Of a stretch of 31,116 bases of DNA, positions 1-6,417 are shown one piece after another (positions within the stretch are counted from its first letter, which is position 1; every line of letters starts with the position of its first letter). The notes beneath the pieces are model-generated. The model was not told the DNA's origin and ran no database searches. It was given only the letters and a program-made list of their open reading frames with translations. Source of the stretch: Clostridia bacterium (GTDB lineage: Bacteria; Bacillota; Clostridia; Oscillospirales; CAG-272); contig JAFNVK010000129.1 of NCBI GenBank assembly GCA_017379815.1, positions 1 to 31,116 of the forward strand, given 5' to 3'. The position numbers and the translations under genes are program-made.

Positions 1-1323
1 GAAGGCAAATCCGAAAACAAGATGCTCCAGCGTATCTACGGTACGGCGTTCCCCACCAAGGACGCACTGAACGCCCACCTGACGAAAATCGAAGAAGCCC
101 GCGGCCGCGACCACAACAAGCTGGGACGCGAGCTGGAGCTCTTCACCACCGTGGATTCCATCGGTCAGGGTCTGCCCGTTATGCTGCCCAAGGGCGCACG
201 CGTCATTCAGCTGCTCCAGAGATGGGTAGAGGATGAGGAGCAAAAGAGAGGCTACCTCCTGACCAAGACCCCCTTGATGGCAAAGCGTGACCTTTACAAG
301 ATCTCGGGTCACTGGGATCACTATCTGGACGGCATGTTCATTCTGGGCGACCCCCACGACGAGACCAAGGAGTGCTTTGCTCTCCGTCCCATGACCTGCC
401 CCTTCCAGTATCAGGTCTTCCTCAATAAGAAGCGTTCCTACCGCGACCTGCCCATGCGTCTTGGCGAGACCTCCACGCTCTTCCGCAACGAGGATTCGGG
501 CGAGATGCACGGCCTTATCCGCGTGCGTCAGTTCACCATCTCCGAGGGACACCTCATTCTCCGTCCCGAGCAGCTGGCTGAGGAGTTCAAGGGCTGCCTG
601 GATCTGGCCATGTATATGCTGGATACGCTGGGCCTGAAGGAGGATTGCTCCTTCCGCTTCTCCCAGTGGGATCCCAAGAGAACCGACAAGTACGAGGGCA
701 CTCCCGAGCAGTGGGAGGAGGCGCAGGGCATCATGAAGACCCTCTTGGACGAGAACAACGTCAACTATACCGTCGGCATCGACGAGGCGGCCTTCTACGG
801 ACCGAAGCTTGACATTCAGATCAAGAACGTCTTTGGCAAGGAGGACACGCTGATCACCATTCAGATCGACATGCTGCTGGCCAAGAAGTTTGGCATGGAG
901 TACGTGGATTCGGGCAACCAGCTCGTCACGCCTTATATCATTCACCGCACGTCCATGGGCTGCTACGAGCGCACGCTTGCGCTCCTGATCGAGAAGTATG
1001 CCGGCGCATTCCCGCTCTGGCTTGCTCCCGAGCAGGTTCGCGTTCTGCCCATCGGCGACGAGCATATCGAGTATGCCAAGAGCGTTACGGAGCGTCTTTC
1101 TGCCGCAGGCCTGCGTGCAGAGCTGGACGATTCCTCCAACACCATCGGCTACAAGATCCGTGCAACCCAGATGCAGAAGGTGCCCTATATGCTGGTCATC
1201 GGCGGCAAGGAGATGGAGACGGGAACCGTCGCCGTCCGCAACCGCGCGGCAGAAACGGTCACCAAGAGCGTGGACGAGTTCCTCGCCGACGCCCTGCTTG
1301 AGGTGGCAGAGAAGAGAAGATAA
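1..1323 (+). CDS. thrS: Threonyl-tRNA synthetase, 5'-truncated (catalytic and anticodon-binding domains)
   Basis: Open frame from base 1 (EGKSENKMLQRIYGTAF). ThrRS motifs RDHNKLG, SGHWDHY, RPMTCP, LIRVRQF, AAFYGPK, IIHR and KVPYMLVIG. Confidence 0.97.
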   Translation, partial: EGKSENKMLQRIYGTAFPTKDALNAHLTKIEEARGRDHNKLGRELELFTTVDSIGQGLPVMLPKGARVIQLLQRWVEDEEQKRGYLLTKTPLMAKRDLYKISGHWDHYLDGMFILGDPHDETKECFALRPMTCPFQYQVFLNKKRSYRDLPMRLGETSTLFRNEDSGEMHGLIRVRQFTISEGHLILRPEQLAEEFKGCLDLAMYMLDTLGLKEDCSFRFSQWDPKRTDKYEGTPEQWEEAQGIMKTLLDENNVNYTVGIDEAAFYGPKLDIQIKNVFGKEDTLITIQIDMLLAKKFGMEYVDSGNQLVTPYIIHRTSMGCYERTLALLIEKYAGAFPLWLAPEQVRVLPIGDEHIEYAKSVTERLSAAGLRAELDDSSNTIGYKIRATQMQKVPYMLVIGGKEMETGTVAVRNRAAETVTKSVDEFLADALLEVAEKRR

Positions 1324-1330
1324 GACTTTT

Positions 1331-1364
1331 GGGACCGTGCCCATCGGCACGGTCCCATCTTTTT
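1331..1364 (+). terminator. Intrinsic terminator after thrS
   Basis: Perfect 11-bp stem gggaccgtgcc-catc-ggcacggtccc followed by atcttttt. Confidence 0.8.
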
Positions 1365-1415: not shown

Positions 1416-1444
1416 TTGACAGAAAAAAGTTTAGACTGTATAAT
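1416..1444 (+). promoter_or_regulatory. Sigma-A promoter of the ACP-MBOAT operon
   Basis: TTGACA (1416-1421), 17-nt spacer, TATAAT (1439-1444): perfect consensus. Confidence 0.9.
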
Positions 1445-1487
1445 ATTAGATAGACAAACACTCTTTCCCGTTTTGGAGGATAGGACC

Positions 1488-1715
1488 ATGGAACAGCTTT
1501 TGGAAATATTGAAGCAGCTGCATCCCGACGTGGATTTTGCCCTTGAGGAGGATCTGATCGGGGACGGCATTCTTGACTCGCTTGACATCGTAACGCTGAT
1601 CACTGAGATCAACTGCACCTTTGACGTCAGCATTCCCGCAGAGGAGATCATTCCCGAGAATTTTGCCTCGGCCGACGCGATCCTGGCTCTGATCGAGCGC
1701 CTCGACGAGGAATGA
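1488..1715 (+). CDS. Acyl carrier protein (DltC-like phosphopantetheine-binding protein), 75 aa
   Basis: RBS ggagga before ATG 1488; acidic small protein with GILDSLD (Ser31 as the 4'-phosphopantetheine site) and C-terminal IIPENFAS. The ORF track start at 1329 runs through the terminator and promoter. Confidence 0.9.
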   Translation: MEQLLEILKQLHPDVDFALEEDLIGDGILDSLDIVTLITEINCTFDVSIPAEEIIPENFASADAILALIERLDEE

Positions 1716-1728
1716 GAGCGGCGGGATC

Positions 1729-3321
1729 ATGAGCTTTACGTCCGCTTCCTTTCTCCTTTTTGCCGTTCTGACGCTCCTTCTGTACTACACGCTCCCCAAG
1801 CGTTGGCAGTGGATCCTGCTTCTCGGCGCGAGCTACGTGTTCTATTTCTTTGCCGGGGCAGAGTATCTGCTCTTTATCCTCTTTACCACGGCGGTGACCT
1901 ATCTTTGCGGCGCTCTTCTGCAGAAGCGCGCGGATGCGGAGGATGCCTTCGTCGAAGAGAATCGGGAGACGCTGAGTAAGGCGGAGCGCAAGGAATTCCG
2001 CGCCGCCGAAAAGAAGAAGCGCTTTCGCCTTCTCGTCGCGGGGCTTCTTTTGGGCTTTGGCGTTCTGGCGGTGGTCAAGTACACCTCCTTCGTCCTCTCG
2101 GGCGTTTCCTCGATCGGACAGGCCTTCGGGGCGGCGCCTCTGCGCATTCCCACGCTGCTTTTGCCGCTTGGCATTTCCTTTTACACCTTCCAATCCATGG
2201 GATACCTCATCGACGTGTACCGCAAGACGGCAAGGGCAGAGAAGAACCCCTTAAGGCTTGCGCTCTTCGTCTCCTATTTTCCCCAGCTGATCCAAGGACC
2301 GATCAGCCGCTTTGGCGACCTTGCTCCGCAGCTCTTTTCGGAGCATCGTTTTGACGGCTTCCGCTTTCGATCGGGTCTTGGGAGCGTGGCGTGGGGCTAC
2401 TTCAAAAAGCTGGTCGTAGCCGATACCGCGATGATCGCGGTCAAGGCGCTTGTGGAGAACAAAGACGGCGGCTTTACGGGAATTTACGTCTTTTTGCTGA
2501 TCCTGTTGTATTCGGCGCAGATCTACGGCGATTTTACGGGAGGGATCGATATTACGATCGGTCTTTCCGAGATGCTGGGGATCCGCCTGGCGGAGAACTT
2601 CGATCGCCCGTTTTCCTCCCGATCCACGAAGGAATACTGGCGCCGCTGGCACATCACCATGGGCACGTGGTTTACCGATTACGTCTTCTATCCGCTCTCG
2701 GTCACGAGGAGTATGCAACGCTTTTCCAAGTGGTCGCGTGAAAAACTCGGCACGGCCGTGGGCAAGCGTCTGCCGGTCTATTTTGCTACGGTCGCGACCT
2801 GGTTCCTCACGGGGCTTTGGCACGGAGCGGGCTGGAATTTTATCGTCTGGGGATTGCTGAACTGCCTGGTGATCCTGGTCTCGCAGGAGCTGCAGCCTCT
2901 TTACGATCGCTTCAACCATCGTTTTCCACGCCTTACGGCAAGCCGCGCGTGGGGAGCGTGGCAGGCTCTGCGCACCTTTTTGCTCATGGGCCTGATCCGA
3001 AGTCTGGATTGCTACCGCAACGTGCCCACTACCTTCCGGATGTGGTGGAGCATGCTGACCGATTGGAATGTCGGCGAGCTTTTTTGCGGAGGGCTGACCT
3101 CCTTCGGGCTTGCTCTGTCCGACTGGTGCGTGCTGCTTTGCGGTATTCTCCTTTTGGCATTGGCCTCGCATCTTGGCAAGAAGCGCCCCGTGCGCGAGTG
3201 GCTTGCCGAGCGGCCGATCCTGCTTTGCGCCGCACTTTGCCTTTTGGCCGTCGTGATCCTGCTCTTCGGCGCGTACGGCATCGGCTACGATGCGTCGCAA
3301 TTCATCTACAACCAATTCTGA
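1729..3321 (+). CDS. MBOAT family O-acyltransferase (AlgI/DltB-like) with C-terminal FIYNQF motif
   Basis: Polytopic hydrophobic protein with LPLGISFYTFQSMGYLIDVY, YFPQLIQGPI, WRRWHITM and GLWHGAGWNFIVWG (catalytic His). Confidence 0.93.
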   Translation: MSFTSASFLLFAVLTLLLYYTLPKRWQWILLLGASYVFYFFAGAEYLLFILFTTAVTYLCGALLQKRADAEDAFVEENRETLSKAERKEFRAAEKKKRFRLLVAGLLLGFGVLAVVKYTSFVLSGVSSIGQAFGAAPLRIPTLLLPLGISFYTFQSMGYLIDVYRKTARAEKNPLRLALFVSYFPQLIQGPISRFGDLAPQLFSEHRFDGFRFRSGLGSVAWGYFKKLVVADTAMIAVKALVENKDGGFTGIYVFLLILLYSAQIYGDFTGGIDITIGLSEMLGIRLAENFDRPFSSRSTKEYWRRWHITMGTWFTDYVFYPLSVTRSMQRFSKWSREKLGTAVGKRLPVYFATVATWFLTGLWHGAGWNFIVWGLLNCLVILVSQELQPLYDRFNHRFPRLTASRAWGAWQALRTFLLMGLIRSLDCYRNVPTTFRMWWSMLTDWNVGELFCGGLTSFGLALSDWCVLLCGILLLALASHLGKKRPVREWLAERPILLCAALCLLAVVILLFGAYGIGYDASQFIYNQF

Positions 3322-3339
3322 CACCCGGAAAGGGAAATT

Positions 3340-4368
3340 ATGAAAAAGAAGATTCTTTGTTGCGCGGCCTTGCTCCTCGCTACGGTCCTTTTGCTTGGCT
3401 TTTTGCAGCTTCTGCTCATGCCGAAGTACATGGCCGACAAGCAGGAGGGCGCGCTGATCGGGGAATACTACCGCGAAACGACGGCGCACGACGTGCTCTT
3501 CGTGGGGGATTGCGAGGTCTACGAATGCTTTACACCTCCCACGCTTTGGGAGGAATACGGCGTCACCTCCTATATCCGCGGAAGCGCCCAGCAGCTCCCC
3601 TGGCAGTCCTACCATCTGCTTGAGGAGATGCTCAAAAGGGAAACGCCAAAGGCGGTGGTCTTTAACGTCTACGCCCTGAAATACGGCACGCCGCAGAACG
3701 AGGCCTACAACCGCATGACGCTGGACGGTATGCGCATGTCGCGGGAAAAGCTTTCGGCGATCCGCGCCTCCATGACCGAGGGGGAGAGCCTGCTCTCCTA
3801 TCTGCTTCCGCTCCTGCGCTTTCACAGCCGCTGGGACGAGCTCTCCGCGGAGGATTGGCAATACCTGCTCCATCGGGACACGGTCTCCCACAACGGCTAT
3901 CTGATGCAAACGGGGATCCTGCCCAAGACCTCGGACCGCGAGGGCGTTCCGCTGGCGGACTACACGCTTCCCGCAACGGCGATGTTCTATCTGGAGCAGA
4001 TGCGCCTGCTCTGCGAGGAGAATGGCGTTGCCCTGATCCTCATCAAGGCGCCCACCAACAACTGGCGCTATTATTGGTACGACGAATGGGATGCGCAGAT
4101 CGCGGATTACGCCGACGGGCATGGGCTTTCCTATTACAACTTTATCGGTCTGGACGGAGAGATCGGTCTTGACTGGAGCACCGACACCTACGACGGCGGC
4201 GCGCACCTGAACGTATACGGTGCGGAAAAGCTGACCTCCTATTTTGGCGAGATCCTTTGCCGCGAGCTTGGCCTTGCGGGGCACCGAGACGATGCGGAGA
4301 TCTCGGCCGTCTGGGCGGAGAAGCTCGACGCCTATAAGCAAGAAAAAGAGAAGGGAAATACACCGTGA
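3340..4368 (+). CDS. Membrane-anchored SGNH/GDSL-like (DltD/AlgJ-like) protein with Cys at the nucleophile position
   Basis: N-terminal K-rich and hydrophobic anchor; block I DVLFVGDCE; block V-like YDGGAHLNVYGA; lies directly after the MBOAT. Confidence 0.75.
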   Translation: MKKKILCCAALLLATVLLLGFLQLLLMPKYMADKQEGALIGEYYRETTAHDVLFVGDCEVYECFTPPTLWEEYGVTSYIRGSAQQLPWQSYHLLEEMLKRETPKAVVFNVYALKYGTPQNEAYNRMTLDGMRMSREKLSAIRASMTEGESLLSYLLPLLRFHSRWDELSAEDWQYLLHRDTVSHNGYLMQTGILPKTSDREGVPLADYTLPATAMFYLEQMRLLCEENGVALILIKAPTNNWRYYWYDEWDAQIADYADGHGLSYYNFIGLDGEIGLDWSTDTYDGGAHLNVYGAEKLTSYFGEILCRELGLAGHRDDAEISAVWAEKLDAYKQEKEKGNTP

Positions 4369-4844
4369 AAAAAACAGTTTGCCTTTTGTTATCCGTCCTC
4401 CTGGCACTCTCTCTTTGTGCCTGCGTTGACCCCGTGACAGACAAAAAGACCTATGCCGCAGCGGTCGAGGGCGTTCGCATCGCCGTGGACGATCCCGCAG
4501 AGCCCGTGCTTTCGGCGCTTGGCGCGTGGAGCAGCTATGATGAATCCCCCTCCTGCGCCTTTGAGGGTCTGGATAAGATCTACGGCTACGGAAGCTTTGA
4601 GATCCAGACCTACACCAAGGACGGCAAGGACTATATCCGCGCGGTCTATCTGATCGACGACGGATGCCGTACCCAAAGGGATATCGCTATCGGGGACACC
4701 GCCGAGGCCGTGAAGGAGGCCTACGGCACGCCCACCCGCGAGAGCGAGGGAAGCCTGCAATATGCGGGCGAGGGCATGACGCTCACCTTCCTGCTTCGCG
4801 ACGGGATCGTGACCAACATTCAATATCTCAAGGACGTGGCATAA
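4365..4844 (+). CDS. Lipoprotein of unknown function
   Basis: GTGA overlap with the upstream stop; signal peptide MKKTVCLLLSVLLALSLCAC with lipobox LCA-C (Cys20). Confidence 0.85.
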   Translation: MKKTVCLLLSVLLALSLCACVDPVTDKKTYAAAVEGVRIAVDDPAEPVLSALGAWSSYDESPSCAFEGLDKIYGYGSFEIQTYTKDGKDYIRAVYLIDDGCRTQRDIAIGDTAEAVKEAYGTPTRESEGSLQYAGEGMTLTFLLRDGIVTNIQYLKDVA

Positions 4845-4849
4845 CGCAA

Positions 4850-4890
4850 GCGCTCTTCCGGTACGGCGGTATCGGGAGAGCGCCTTTTCT
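4850..4890 (+). terminator. Intrinsic terminator of the ACP-MBOAT operon
   Basis: 15-bp stem gcgctcttccggtac/gtatcgggagagcgc (two G-U pairs), loop ggcg, followed by cttttct. Confidence 0.85.
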
Positions 4891-4954
4891 TTCCTGCGGA
4901 CAACGTATATTTCCATTTACCCACGAATAGAAAGGTAAAAAGGGGGGTGAGGGG

Positions 4955-5533
4955 ATGCAGACCGCGTCAAAAACGCTTCGACTGACGGTAAGGGAAGGCT
5001 ATCAGGTCCTGTTGCGTGCCGAGGCAGAGCTTCTTCTGCCGGTGAAGGAGGGGAGGATGCGGGACTTCTATCTCGCACTTGGCGAGACCTGTATGCACTG
5101 GGCGGAGGAGATCGAGGGGGAGCGATTGCGCCGTGCCTATGCGGAGCTTGGCACTCTGCGCGAGCGCTCCGGCTTTCGTGCGGGGCTTTATCGCTTGCGC
5201 ATGCGGATCCCGTGGGAGGAGGGGCGGCTCGTGGCCCTGCTTTGCGAATCCGAGCTGTACGGCGAAAGCCTTTCGCGGCGCGCGGGGCTGCACCGAACGG
5301 TGCAGATCTGGGATGCGGAGGAGGAGCTGATCCTTCCCATGGGGCAGGCACTTGCCCGTCTTGCCCCCTGGATGCAGAAAAGGATGCTCCCCTTTCACCC
5401 GGACGGCTTCTTTCCGCAAGGCGACGGACTGCTCCTCTTTCGCAATCCTTCCCACGGAGGGGAGTTTCTCGAAAAATGGATCGCCGGGCCCTCGGCGGAG
5501 GGGAAGAGGGAGGATCGCGGGAGACCTTCTTGA
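4955..5533 (+). CDS. Hypothetical protein, 192 aa
   Basis: Purine-rich RBS (ggtgagggg) before ATG; fills the gap between a terminator and the next promoter; no motif recognised with certainty. Confidence 0.6.
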   Translation: MQTASKTLRLTVREGYQVLLRAEAELLLPVKEGRMRDFYLALGETCMHWAEEIEGERLRRAYAELGTLRERSGFRAGLYRLRMRIPWEEGRLVALLCESELYGESLSRRAGLHRTVQIWDAEEELILPMGQALARLAPWMQKRMLPFHPDGFFPQGDGLLLFRNPSHGGEFLEKWIAGPSAEGKREDRGRPS

Positions 5534-5568: not shown

Positions 5569-5597
5569 TTGACACTGCCCGGGAGCGCCGATATAAT
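5569..5597 (+). promoter_or_regulatory. Sigma-A promoter of the HAD gene
   Basis: TTGACA (5569-5574), 17 nt, TATAAT (5592-5597). Confidence 0.88.
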
Positions 5598-5658
5598 AAA
5601 GGCAATGAACGCGCGGGAGAGGGCGATGGCCCAATGCTCTGCAGAAAGGATGGCCGCT

Positions 5659-6417
5659 GTGATCAAGCTGATCGTTTCGGATTTTGACGGAACCGTTTTG
5701 CCCTATGGACAGAAGGCCGTCTCTGCCGCGTGGAGGAGCGCCGTTTCGTCCGCCATGGAGGAGGGCGTTCTTTTTGCGATCTCCTCGGGAAGAACCTACG
5801 GCGAGCTGCTCTCCTTCCTTCCCGAATTGCAGGATGCGGCGTATTTTATTTGCTGTGACGGTGCGTATACCGTCTTCCGCGGCCGTATTCTCTACGCCAG
5901 ACAGATCCCGTTTCCCGAGCTTGAGCGTTTGTTGAAGCAGGAGCACTCCTTTGTCGGTTGCGTCCTGCACGGCGCGTTTGCCAATTACGCCGTGGGGCGC
6001 GTGCCCGAGGCGGTGCTTTCGCATTTTGCGGCAAAGCCGATCACCAATCTGCATCTGATCCGCGAGCCGATCTTTAAGGTCACCTCCTTTGGCGGTGCCG
6101 AGGCGCCCGCGCTTCCCGTTGGGATCCGCATGCATTGGGATGGCGGCCGTGAGGCGATGGCGCAGTACGTCAGCCGCTTTGCCAACAAGGGAACGGCGCT
6201 TTCCGATCTCCAGATGCGCCTGCCCGTGACTCGTCTGCAGACGGCCTGCGTGGGGGATAGCGGAAACGACGTGGCCATGATGCACAATGCGGTCATTTCG
6301 ATCTGCGTGGGGGATCGCTCGGACGAGCTTGCCTCGGTCTGCAACGTGTCCTTGCGCTCTGCAGAGGAATCTCTCGAGCTGATCCGACGGGTCAACGAGG
6401 CCCTCCGAGCCGAATAA
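5659..6417 (+). CDS. Cof-like HAD-IIB family hydrolase (probable phosphatase)
   Basis: RBS agaaagga 8 nt before GTG 5659; motif I SDFDGT, motif II ISSGR, motif III NKG, motif IV GDSGND. Confidence 0.88.
   Translation: MIKLIVSDFDGTVLPYGQKAVSAAWRSAVSSAMEEGVLFAISSGRTYGELLSFLPELQDAAYFICCDGAYTVFRGRILYARQIPFPELERLLKQEHSFVGCVLHGAFANYAVGRVPEAVLSHFAAKPITNLHLIREPIFKVTSFGGAEAPALPVGIRMHWDGGREAMAQYVSRFANKGTALSDLQMRLPVTRLQTACVGDSGNDVAMMHNAVISICVGDRSDELASVCNVSLRSAEESLELIRRVNEALRAE

Follow-up and report, generated by a model that had tools for sequence, protein, structure and literature searches.

A four-gene carrier protein, MBOAT, SGNH and lipoprotein unit of a Clostridia bacterium is the distal half of a split, ligase-containing cassette

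The four-gene unit and its proteins

The stretch of DNA analysed here, referred to as the window, is the 31,116-nucleotide contig JAFNVK010000129.1 (assembly GCA_017379815.1) of a Clostridia bacterium from the order Oscillospirales. Four genes near its left end, all on the + strand, encode a small carrier protein, an MBOAT-family membrane protein, an SGNH protein and a lipoprotein, and they are preceded by a promoter and closed by a terminator (Table 1). They make up the distal half of a widespread cassette of six to seven genes, a relative of the Dlt machinery for cell-wall D-alanylation, which is split in this genus; related loci in which a ligase gene is linked to the unit show the full gene order, unsplit, on one strand. 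The genome is a metagenome-assembled genome (MAG) of 1.36 Mb, 72% complete and distributed over 204 contigs; its ligase gene resides on another of these, contig C149.

Within the unit, the genes are spaced by 13 nt and 18 nt and then overlap by 4 nt, and the -10 hexamer of the promoter lies 43 nt from the carrier ATG at 1488. The region's two strongest terminator-like hairpins flank the unit on either side. Within the four genes, neither the listing of open reading frames (ORFs) nor the family scans give an ORF with an AMP-binding domain, and an Rfam scan of the whole window returned zero matches. An earlier note, made from the sequence alone, had described the locus as a perfect promoter 43 nt before the carrier start, four tightly packed genes and a terminator, with no room for a DltA-like ligase, and this description of the layout is borne out.

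Table 1. Positions of the features of the four-gene unit and its upstream neighbour in the window.
Feature	Position	Strand	Basis or remark
thrS	22-1323	+	ORF listing and family scans
Terminator of upstream thrS, 5' boundary of the unit	1330-1357	+	12-pair hairpin with 9 G-C pairs, then a T run
Sigma-70-type promoter, TTGACA-17-TATAAT	1416-1444	+	12/12 consensus match
Shine-Dalgarno sequence, GGAGG	1475-1479	+	8 nt ahead of the ATG; read from the sequence
Carrier protein gene, 75 aa	1488-1715	+	
MBOAT gene, 530 aa	1729-3321	+	
SGNH protein gene, 342 aa	3340-4368	+	
Lipoprotein gene, 159 aa	4365-4844	+	
Intrinsic terminator, 3' end of the unit	4850-4883 (also given as 4850-4893)	+	15-pair hairpin, then CTTTTCTTTC

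The carrier protein matches PF00550 (PP-binding) with 26.4 bits, above the cut-off. Its best named NCBIfam model is DltC, on which it reaches 39.9 bits versus a cut-off of 68 (NF003464), while TIGR01688 gives 25.6 versus 52.35. The phosphopantetheine site is Ser31 of a DSL motif (codon 1578-1580), and the pattern DS[LF] is found in 64 of 67 homologues. The MBOAT protein scores 65.6 bits on PF03062 (cut-off 27) and 136.8 bits on the DltB model TIGR04091 (cut-off 375), with only residues 142-404 aligned in the latter case. Its predicted catalytic residue is His308, within WRRWHIT (codon 2650-2652), and by sequence its solved relatives are DltB structures only (6BUG and 8JEM, E about 1e-21, with the alignment covering the His). 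The protein has two extra C-terminal helices and ends in the acyl-shuttle motif FIYNQF (residues 525-530, positions 3301-3318); in nearly all homologues, FIYxQF is likewise terminal. The FxYxxF acyl-shuttle hexapeptide is known from DltX and from the C-terminus of PatA (PMC12148441).

For the SGNH protein, the Pfam scan gave only a sub-threshold match to Lipase_GDSL_2. Its AlphaFold model has a predicted local distance difference test (pLDDT) value of 96.6, with an N-terminal membrane helix at residues 2-26, and the modelled fold resembles TesA and PAF-AH (Z 12-14) as well as PatB (Z 12.3-12.6). Against DltD structures, Foldseek returns E values of 3e-4 to 3e-3 and template modelling (TM) scores of 0.38-0.45, a likeness at the level of the fold only; DltD is not among the best 50 matches of the structural re-ranking, which does not exclude a relationship. 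The nucleophile position is occupied by Cys58 in a GDCE motif (codon 3511-3513). Among 70 representatives, this position holds Ser in 50 and Cys in 20, and nothing else; the GDCE form marks the subfamily to which the window protein belongs. A DxxxH block is formed by Asp285 and His289 (4204-4206), and His289, Asn291 and Asp285 are conserved. The family is very large: one database has more than 7,000 homologues, and a second has 6,369 clusters at the 50% identity level. Close homologues bear the precomputed label PF27429.1 in a protein database.

The lipoprotein has no family match; its lipobox cysteine is Cys20. Its AlphaFold model (pLDDT 91.3) is a tandem alpha/beta repeat of the DUF4309/YjgB-like kind, with fold matches to the N-terminal domains of 4IFA (Z 11.8) and 4H0A (Z 10.8) and to B. 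subtilis YjgB, 4YGT (Z 10.3). The residues C20, C64, Y73 and D99 are invariant among 36 sequences. Cys64 (4554-4556) is unpaired, sits in an E-x-x-S-C motif, and is also kept in proteins in which this domain is fused to an SGNH domain. It should be noted that, together with SGNH Cys58 and the Cys of a transglutaminase-like lipoprotein described below, it makes three conserved surface thiols.

Split and unsplit forms of the cassette

Related loci were collected by scanning one genome per species with a 12-sequence SGNH alignment, mainly of the Cys subfamily, as the query. The scan returned 80 loci, all from uncultured gut or rumen Clostridia, Oscillospiraceae or Faecousia MAGs, and wherever a locus is long enough, its genes stand in the order carrier-MBOAT-SGNH-lipoprotein, often behind thrS. 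In 27 of the 80, a gene for a transglutaminase-like lipoprotein, a ligase gene and the carrier, MBOAT and SGNH genes follow one another on one strand, tightly packed; the small lipoprotein gene follows in all of these loci except two. A further ligase-linked locus starts inside the ligase gene, which brings the loci whose carrier gene is immediately preceded by the ligase gene to 28. Relative to the proteins of this genome, the SGNH identity in the 27 loci is 53-65% and the ligase identity 54-66%. Twenty of them have the six-gene form. In the other seven, the transglutaminase-like gene and the ligase gene are about 0.8 kb apart (1.9 kb in L163), and in L152, whose gap is the only one checked, this space holds an Asp/Glu-family racemase gene.

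In the genome under study, seven genes encode AMP-binding proteins, and only one of these, on C149, aligns with the DltA models end to end. This ligase scores 252-262 bits on DltA models over its full length (253 versus a cut-off of 559.85 on TIGR01734), and it passes the amino-acid adenylation-domain model TIGR01733 (323.7 versus 317.4 bits). It is a single-domain protein that resembles the adenylation domains of nonribosomal peptide synthetases about as much as it does DltA structures. An orthologue is present in 33 of 36 genus genomes. In 28 of 29 genus loci, the gene immediately before the ligase encodes a lipoprotein that combines an Ig-like domain with a transglutaminase-like Cys-His-Asp core, a domain of the cysteine-protease fold; on C149, this gene is cut by the contig end.

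The distribution of the genes and the fusions among their products support the assignment of the two loci to one cassette. Of the 36 genus genomes sampled, 32 have the SGNH gene. Most of the genus has the ligase together with the four-gene unit, and in three genomes, one of them 95% complete, neither was found. That genome, G029 (20 contigs), lacks every component searched for, namely the genes for the SGNH protein, the ligase, the transglutaminase-like protein and the orthologous MBOAT as well as a racemase homologue; only a paralogous AlgI-type MBOAT is retained. Furthermore, two SGNH homologues, P0125 and P0157, have at their C-terminus an Ig plus transglutaminase-like module that is homologous to the lipoprotein encoded next to the ligase (28-33% identity, E 3e-24 and 4e-40), and the small-lipoprotein domain is fused behind the SGNH domain in P0122, P0130, P0131 and P0132 (33-36% identity). 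In P0124, a lipobox-like stretch persists in the linker, and this case may reflect read-through in the gene call and not a genuine fusion. Other C-terminal modules were seen in metagenomic SGNH homologues, namely DUF4300 in P0222 (924 aa) and an ILEI-like stretch in P0176 (497 aa). The surface partner domains of the SGNH family appear to be swapped between lineages.

These results change how the unit is to be read. The earlier note had called it self-contained, with no adenylating ligase, and that part does not stand: the search of the genome for AMP-binding ligases finds a dedicated DltA-like amino-acid adenylation enzyme on C149, and orthologues of it precede the carrier gene in relatives. 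Its proposal that the carrier is charged in trans holds for an unlinked ligase, while charging from the fatty-acid or acyl-CoA pool is unlikely because a dedicated ligase adjoins the carrier gene in relatives. Its assignment of the lipoprotein to the system is supported, as the gene is adjacent in nearly all loci and several proteins combine its domain with an SGNH domain.

The novel feature of this window is the split of the operon, with a newly fixed consensus promoter before the carrier gene. The comparison set comprised 26 related loci in which no other cassette gene precedes the carrier gene and 1.7 kb or more of upstream sequence is visible. A 12/12 promoter stands 30-81 nt from the carrier start in 20 of these split-type loci and an 11/12 promoter in 2; in the remaining 4, the carrier gene follows 3-20 nt behind thrS. 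The best promoter score in the ligase-linked loci is only 6-10 of 12, with a full match in none of the 27. Given that the complete consensus recurs in 20 of the 26 split-type loci, the promoter ahead of the carrier gene is more than a chance occurrence.

Bovine-gut metatranscriptome contigs with at least 95% identity to the unit were also compared. The carrier/MBOAT junction is spanned by contigs covering 1519-1972 and 1574-1974, and the SGNH/lipoprotein junction by contigs covering 4155-4598 and 4216-4537. Only one contig (3211-4023, run X1) spans the MBOAT/SGNH junction, and the RNA status of run X1 is a guess. Among these contigs, which are sparse and of low depth, none reaches beyond 4868, and the MBOAT and SGNH genes are partly uncovered in the runs that are certainly RNA; moreover, contigs of an RNA library can contain DNA. 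Their spans agree with a single transcript of the four genes and support it weakly. One further contig, from run X3, joins 2787 to 3382 with 6 nt of microhomology, omitting 594 nt of the MBOAT 3' end; being a single low-depth contig, it is probably an assembly chimera.

Several additional observations concern the neighbourhoods of the two halves. In at least 20 genus loci (e.g. L092:8615-13858 of G015, L093 and L090), the transglutaminase-like/ligase pair stands directly behind asnA (aspartate-ammonia ligase), and in many it is followed by asnS; the unsplit cassettes show no such placement. The position may hint at an Asp- or Asn-related cargo or merely mark an insertion site. Behind the lipoprotein gene, in most genus loci, comes a 192-aa ORF (4955-5533 in the window) with no family match, which the unsplit cassettes lack. 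A second perfect TTGACA-17-TATAAT promoter at 5569-5597 overlaps the listed TTG start of an ORF for a HAD-family hydrolase (5569-6417), whose true start is probably further downstream. Finally, L159, L160, L161 and L167 hold SGNH (57-58% identity) and lipoprotein genes with no MBOAT, carrier or ligase gene within 8-9 kb upstream, and this arrangement may be a second, different mode of cassette splitting.

A further gene order occurs in two other families of the order, represented by G053 and G056, where ligase, GNAT, carrier and MBOAT genes stand in a row; the GNAT has no orthologue in this genome. The G053 cluster (L053:8411-15049) has two tandem Ser-type SGNH genes, and its ligase has YIAAIR in place of FDAPLK and lacks the Asp that binds the alpha-amino group. 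In the G056 cluster (L089:4622-10484), the gene behind the MBOAT encodes a 641-aa protein with a polysaccharide deacetylase domain.

The ligase pocket, the cargo and known systems

Equivalents of Asp235 and Lys517 are found in every aligned ligase with the exception of the G053 ligase, in which the Asp is missing. Because the alpha-amino-binding Asp is present, the substrate of the cassette ligase is, as judged from the sequence, an amino acid. The pocket read from the genus and the six-gene loci is D-A-K-C-A-G-L-G-M-K, and that of the racemase-bearing loci is nearly identical, position 301 being A and position 331 I. Four canonical Clostridia DltA enzymes give D-L-(M/T/A)-V-L-C-(T/G/S)-V-(C/A)-K. 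Among the cassette ligases, the pocket Lys is invariant. The racemase embedded in L152 scores 208 bits on TIGR00035, the aspartate-racemase subfamily, and passes the cysteate-racemase model (212 versus a cut-off of 190 bits). Unlinked racemase homologues, with 37-44% identity to the operon-embedded one, occur in 32 of 36 genus genomes. The cargo is probably not D-alanine, and the pocket Lys, the Asp-type racemase and the asnA/asnS setting make an acidic D-amino acid, similar to D-Asp, our leading guess.

The cassette shares with Dlt a stand-alone adenylation enzyme, a small DSL carrier, an MBOAT with a conserved His, the FxYxxF hexapeptide, and a membrane-anchored extracytoplasmic SGNH transferase. 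It differs in that its ligase, carrier and MBOAT score below the Dlt equivalog cut-offs, its SGNH protein falls outside the DltD family and carries a Cys where the nucleophile is expected, and its ligase pocket is unlike that of DltA. The hexapeptide is fused to the C-terminus of the cassette MBOAT, whereas in Dlt it is on the separate DltX microprotein; in the ORF listing, the unit has no DltX-like small ORF. Two conserved lipoproteins, transglutaminase-like and DUF4309-like, are added, an Asp-type racemase or a GNAT gene occurs in sister operons, and in this genus the genes are divided between two loci. With PatA/PatB and AlgI/AlgJ/AlgX, the cassette has in common an MBOAT with two extra C-terminal helices ending in FxYxxF and a separate extracytoplasmic SGNH partner, but its MBOAT is fed by a carrier and a dedicated ligase, and its nucleophile position holds Cys where theirs holds Ser.

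AlmEFG, which places glycine onto Vibrio cholerae lipid A, also couples a DltA-like ligase and a DltC-like carrier to the delivery of an amino acid other than D-alanine to the envelope. Unlike the cassette, it has no MBOAT, SGNH protein or Tyr shuttle, and AlmG is an enzyme of the lipid A acyltransferase family at the cytoplasmic face. The literature search found no paper describing a carrier-fed MBOAT-SGNH cassette with a fused Tyr motif. Taken as a whole, the system belongs to carrier-fed MBOAT-SGNH envelope acylation, of which it is a variant still uncharacterised. In this respect the earlier note was right, both in considering the four-gene architecture uncharacterised and in describing a Dlt-like, carrier-fed acylation unit that is neither a canonical dlt nor an alg operon; the unit does not represent an orthologous dlt operon, and the scores stay under the Dlt equivalog cut-offs.

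A second MBOAT of this genome bears on the comparison with known systems. It is encoded on contig C47 (L008:922-3681), ends in FAYLNF, and is followed by a DHHW/AlgJ-like protein, the two forming a carrier-less pair that is probably the genome's O-acetylation system. On the DltB model, this paralogous AlgI-type MBOAT reaches 169.4 bits and thus exceeds the window MBOAT, which shows that the DltB match of the latter is generic. Could the cassette nevertheless be an ordinary dlt system for the D-alanylation of teichoic acid, with dltA merely located elsewhere? The kinds of parts are the same (ligase, carrier, MBOAT and SGNH), their best NCBIfam names are DltA, DltC and DltB, and among solved structures the MBOAT has sequence relatives in DltB only. 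However, the equivalog scores fall far short (253 versus 560, 39.9 versus 68 and 136.8 versus 375), the Pfam scan gives no DltD family match, the Tyr motif is on the MBOAT and not on a DltX, the pocket departs from the four canonical DltA enzymes at nearly every variable position, and extra conserved genes accompany the cassette (those for the transglutaminase-like protein and the lipoprotein, and the Asp-type racemase gene in sister loci). We therefore regard an ordinary dlt system as very improbable. The same holds for O-acetylation from acetyl-CoA of the PatA/PatB or AlgI/J type, with the carrier gene as a bystander: the fused FxYxxF motif, the two extra helices and the PatB-like SGNH model would suit it, but the carrier gene directly precedes the MBOAT gene in every locus long enough to show it, the C47 pair already fits the acetylation role, and acetyl-CoA-fed MBOAT/SGNH pathways lack a carrier protein (PMC12148441).

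Another explanation takes the unit as independent of any ligase: the pool of fatty acids or acyl-CoA would supply the carrier, and the exported cargo would be a lipid or a short acyl group. The operon does lack a ligase and has its own strong promoter, and acyltransferases can in principle load carrier proteins; against this, an orthologous adenylation enzyme is encoded immediately before the orthologous carrier in 28 loci, the ligase and the unit occur together in most of the genus while in three genomes neither was found, and by model scores the carrier resembles DltC and not the acyl carrier protein of fatty acid synthesis. Such charging seems improbable to us on these grounds. We give somewhat more room, while still considering it unlikely, to the possibility that no polymer is decorated at all and that the surface enzymes, through a chain of cysteine thioesters, build or edit something else, such as an amino acid attached by an amide bond to peptidoglycan stem peptides or to a surface protein. 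Thioesters favour aminolysis, and the Cys that replaces Ser at the SGNH nucleophile position throughout the subfamily, the constant association with a transglutaminase-like Cys-His-Asp protein and the invariant unpaired Cys64 of the lipoprotein all point in this direction. This proposal is nonetheless pure inference, and Ser-type members of the same SGNH family occur in similar contexts.

Proposed transfer route and its significance

Given these comparisons, we consider it likely that the window encodes the membrane and surface half of a two-locus, carrier-dependent aminoacyl-transfer system, mechanistically related to Dlt, whose other half is on C149 and whose cargo is probably not D-alanine. 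The gene content, synteny, split, co-occurrence, folds and motif conservation observed above provide the frame; each chemical step, the cargo and the acceptor are inferred, the path by analogy with DltA/C/B/X/D and PatA/B. The ligase would adenylate an amino acid and load it onto the Ser31-linked phosphopantetheine of the carrier. By means of His308, the MBOAT protein would then take the amino acid through the membrane to the Tyr of the FIYNQF at its own C-terminus, in keeping with the Tyr-shuttle mechanism published for Dlt and PatA/B (PMC12148441). The membrane-anchored SGNH protein would accept it on Cys58 as a thioester, and delivery to an envelope acceptor may be aided by the small lipoprotein and the transglutaminase-like lipoprotein. 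As for its history, an ancestral single operon would have been broken in this genus, with the distal half gaining its own consensus promoter.

Several points weigh against this two-locus interpretation or against parts of it. Cys58 is assigned as the putative catalytic residue from its position, and the RNA basis for co-transcription consists of low-depth contigs. With regard to the cargo, the pocket code was read from ligases aligned on conserved adenylation motifs, and the case for an acidic substrate leans on one Lys together with published codes. Furthermore, the racemase copies of the genus are unlinked and only 37-44% identical to the embedded one, which makes their orthology uncertain, and a racemase homologue was not found in this genome, although at 72% completeness this does not show its absence.

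A bolder extension of the two-locus system is a new extracytoplasmic acyl relay, in which an acidic D-amino acid would pass from the MBOAT Tyr to SGNH Cys58, possibly to lipoprotein Cys64, and then to the transglutaminase-like Cys, ending as an amide on peptidoglycan or a surface protein and not as an ester on teichoic acid. We hold this to be doubtful, and offer it as speculation. If it were true, gut Clostridia would perform a previously unseen, ribosome-independent editing of their surface outside the cell.

Published MBOAT-SGNH systems for envelope acylation are of two types, namely Dlt, with a carrier and a separate DltX, and the acetyl-CoA systems, with no carrier and a fused Tyr motif. 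The cassette unites features of both types, and to these it adds a cysteine at the nucleophile position and two extra surface lipoproteins. For annotation, the lesson is that a seemingly ligase-less carrier-MBOAT operon calls for a genome-wide search for the cognate ligase before a different mechanism is inferred. The cassette belongs to a very large family and occurs in uncultured gut and rumen Clostridia. Should its cargo indeed be an acidic D-amino acid, the surface charge would be shifted in the direction opposite to that of D-alanylation, and this could matter for cationic peptide resistance, phage adsorption and host recognition in abundant gut commensals.

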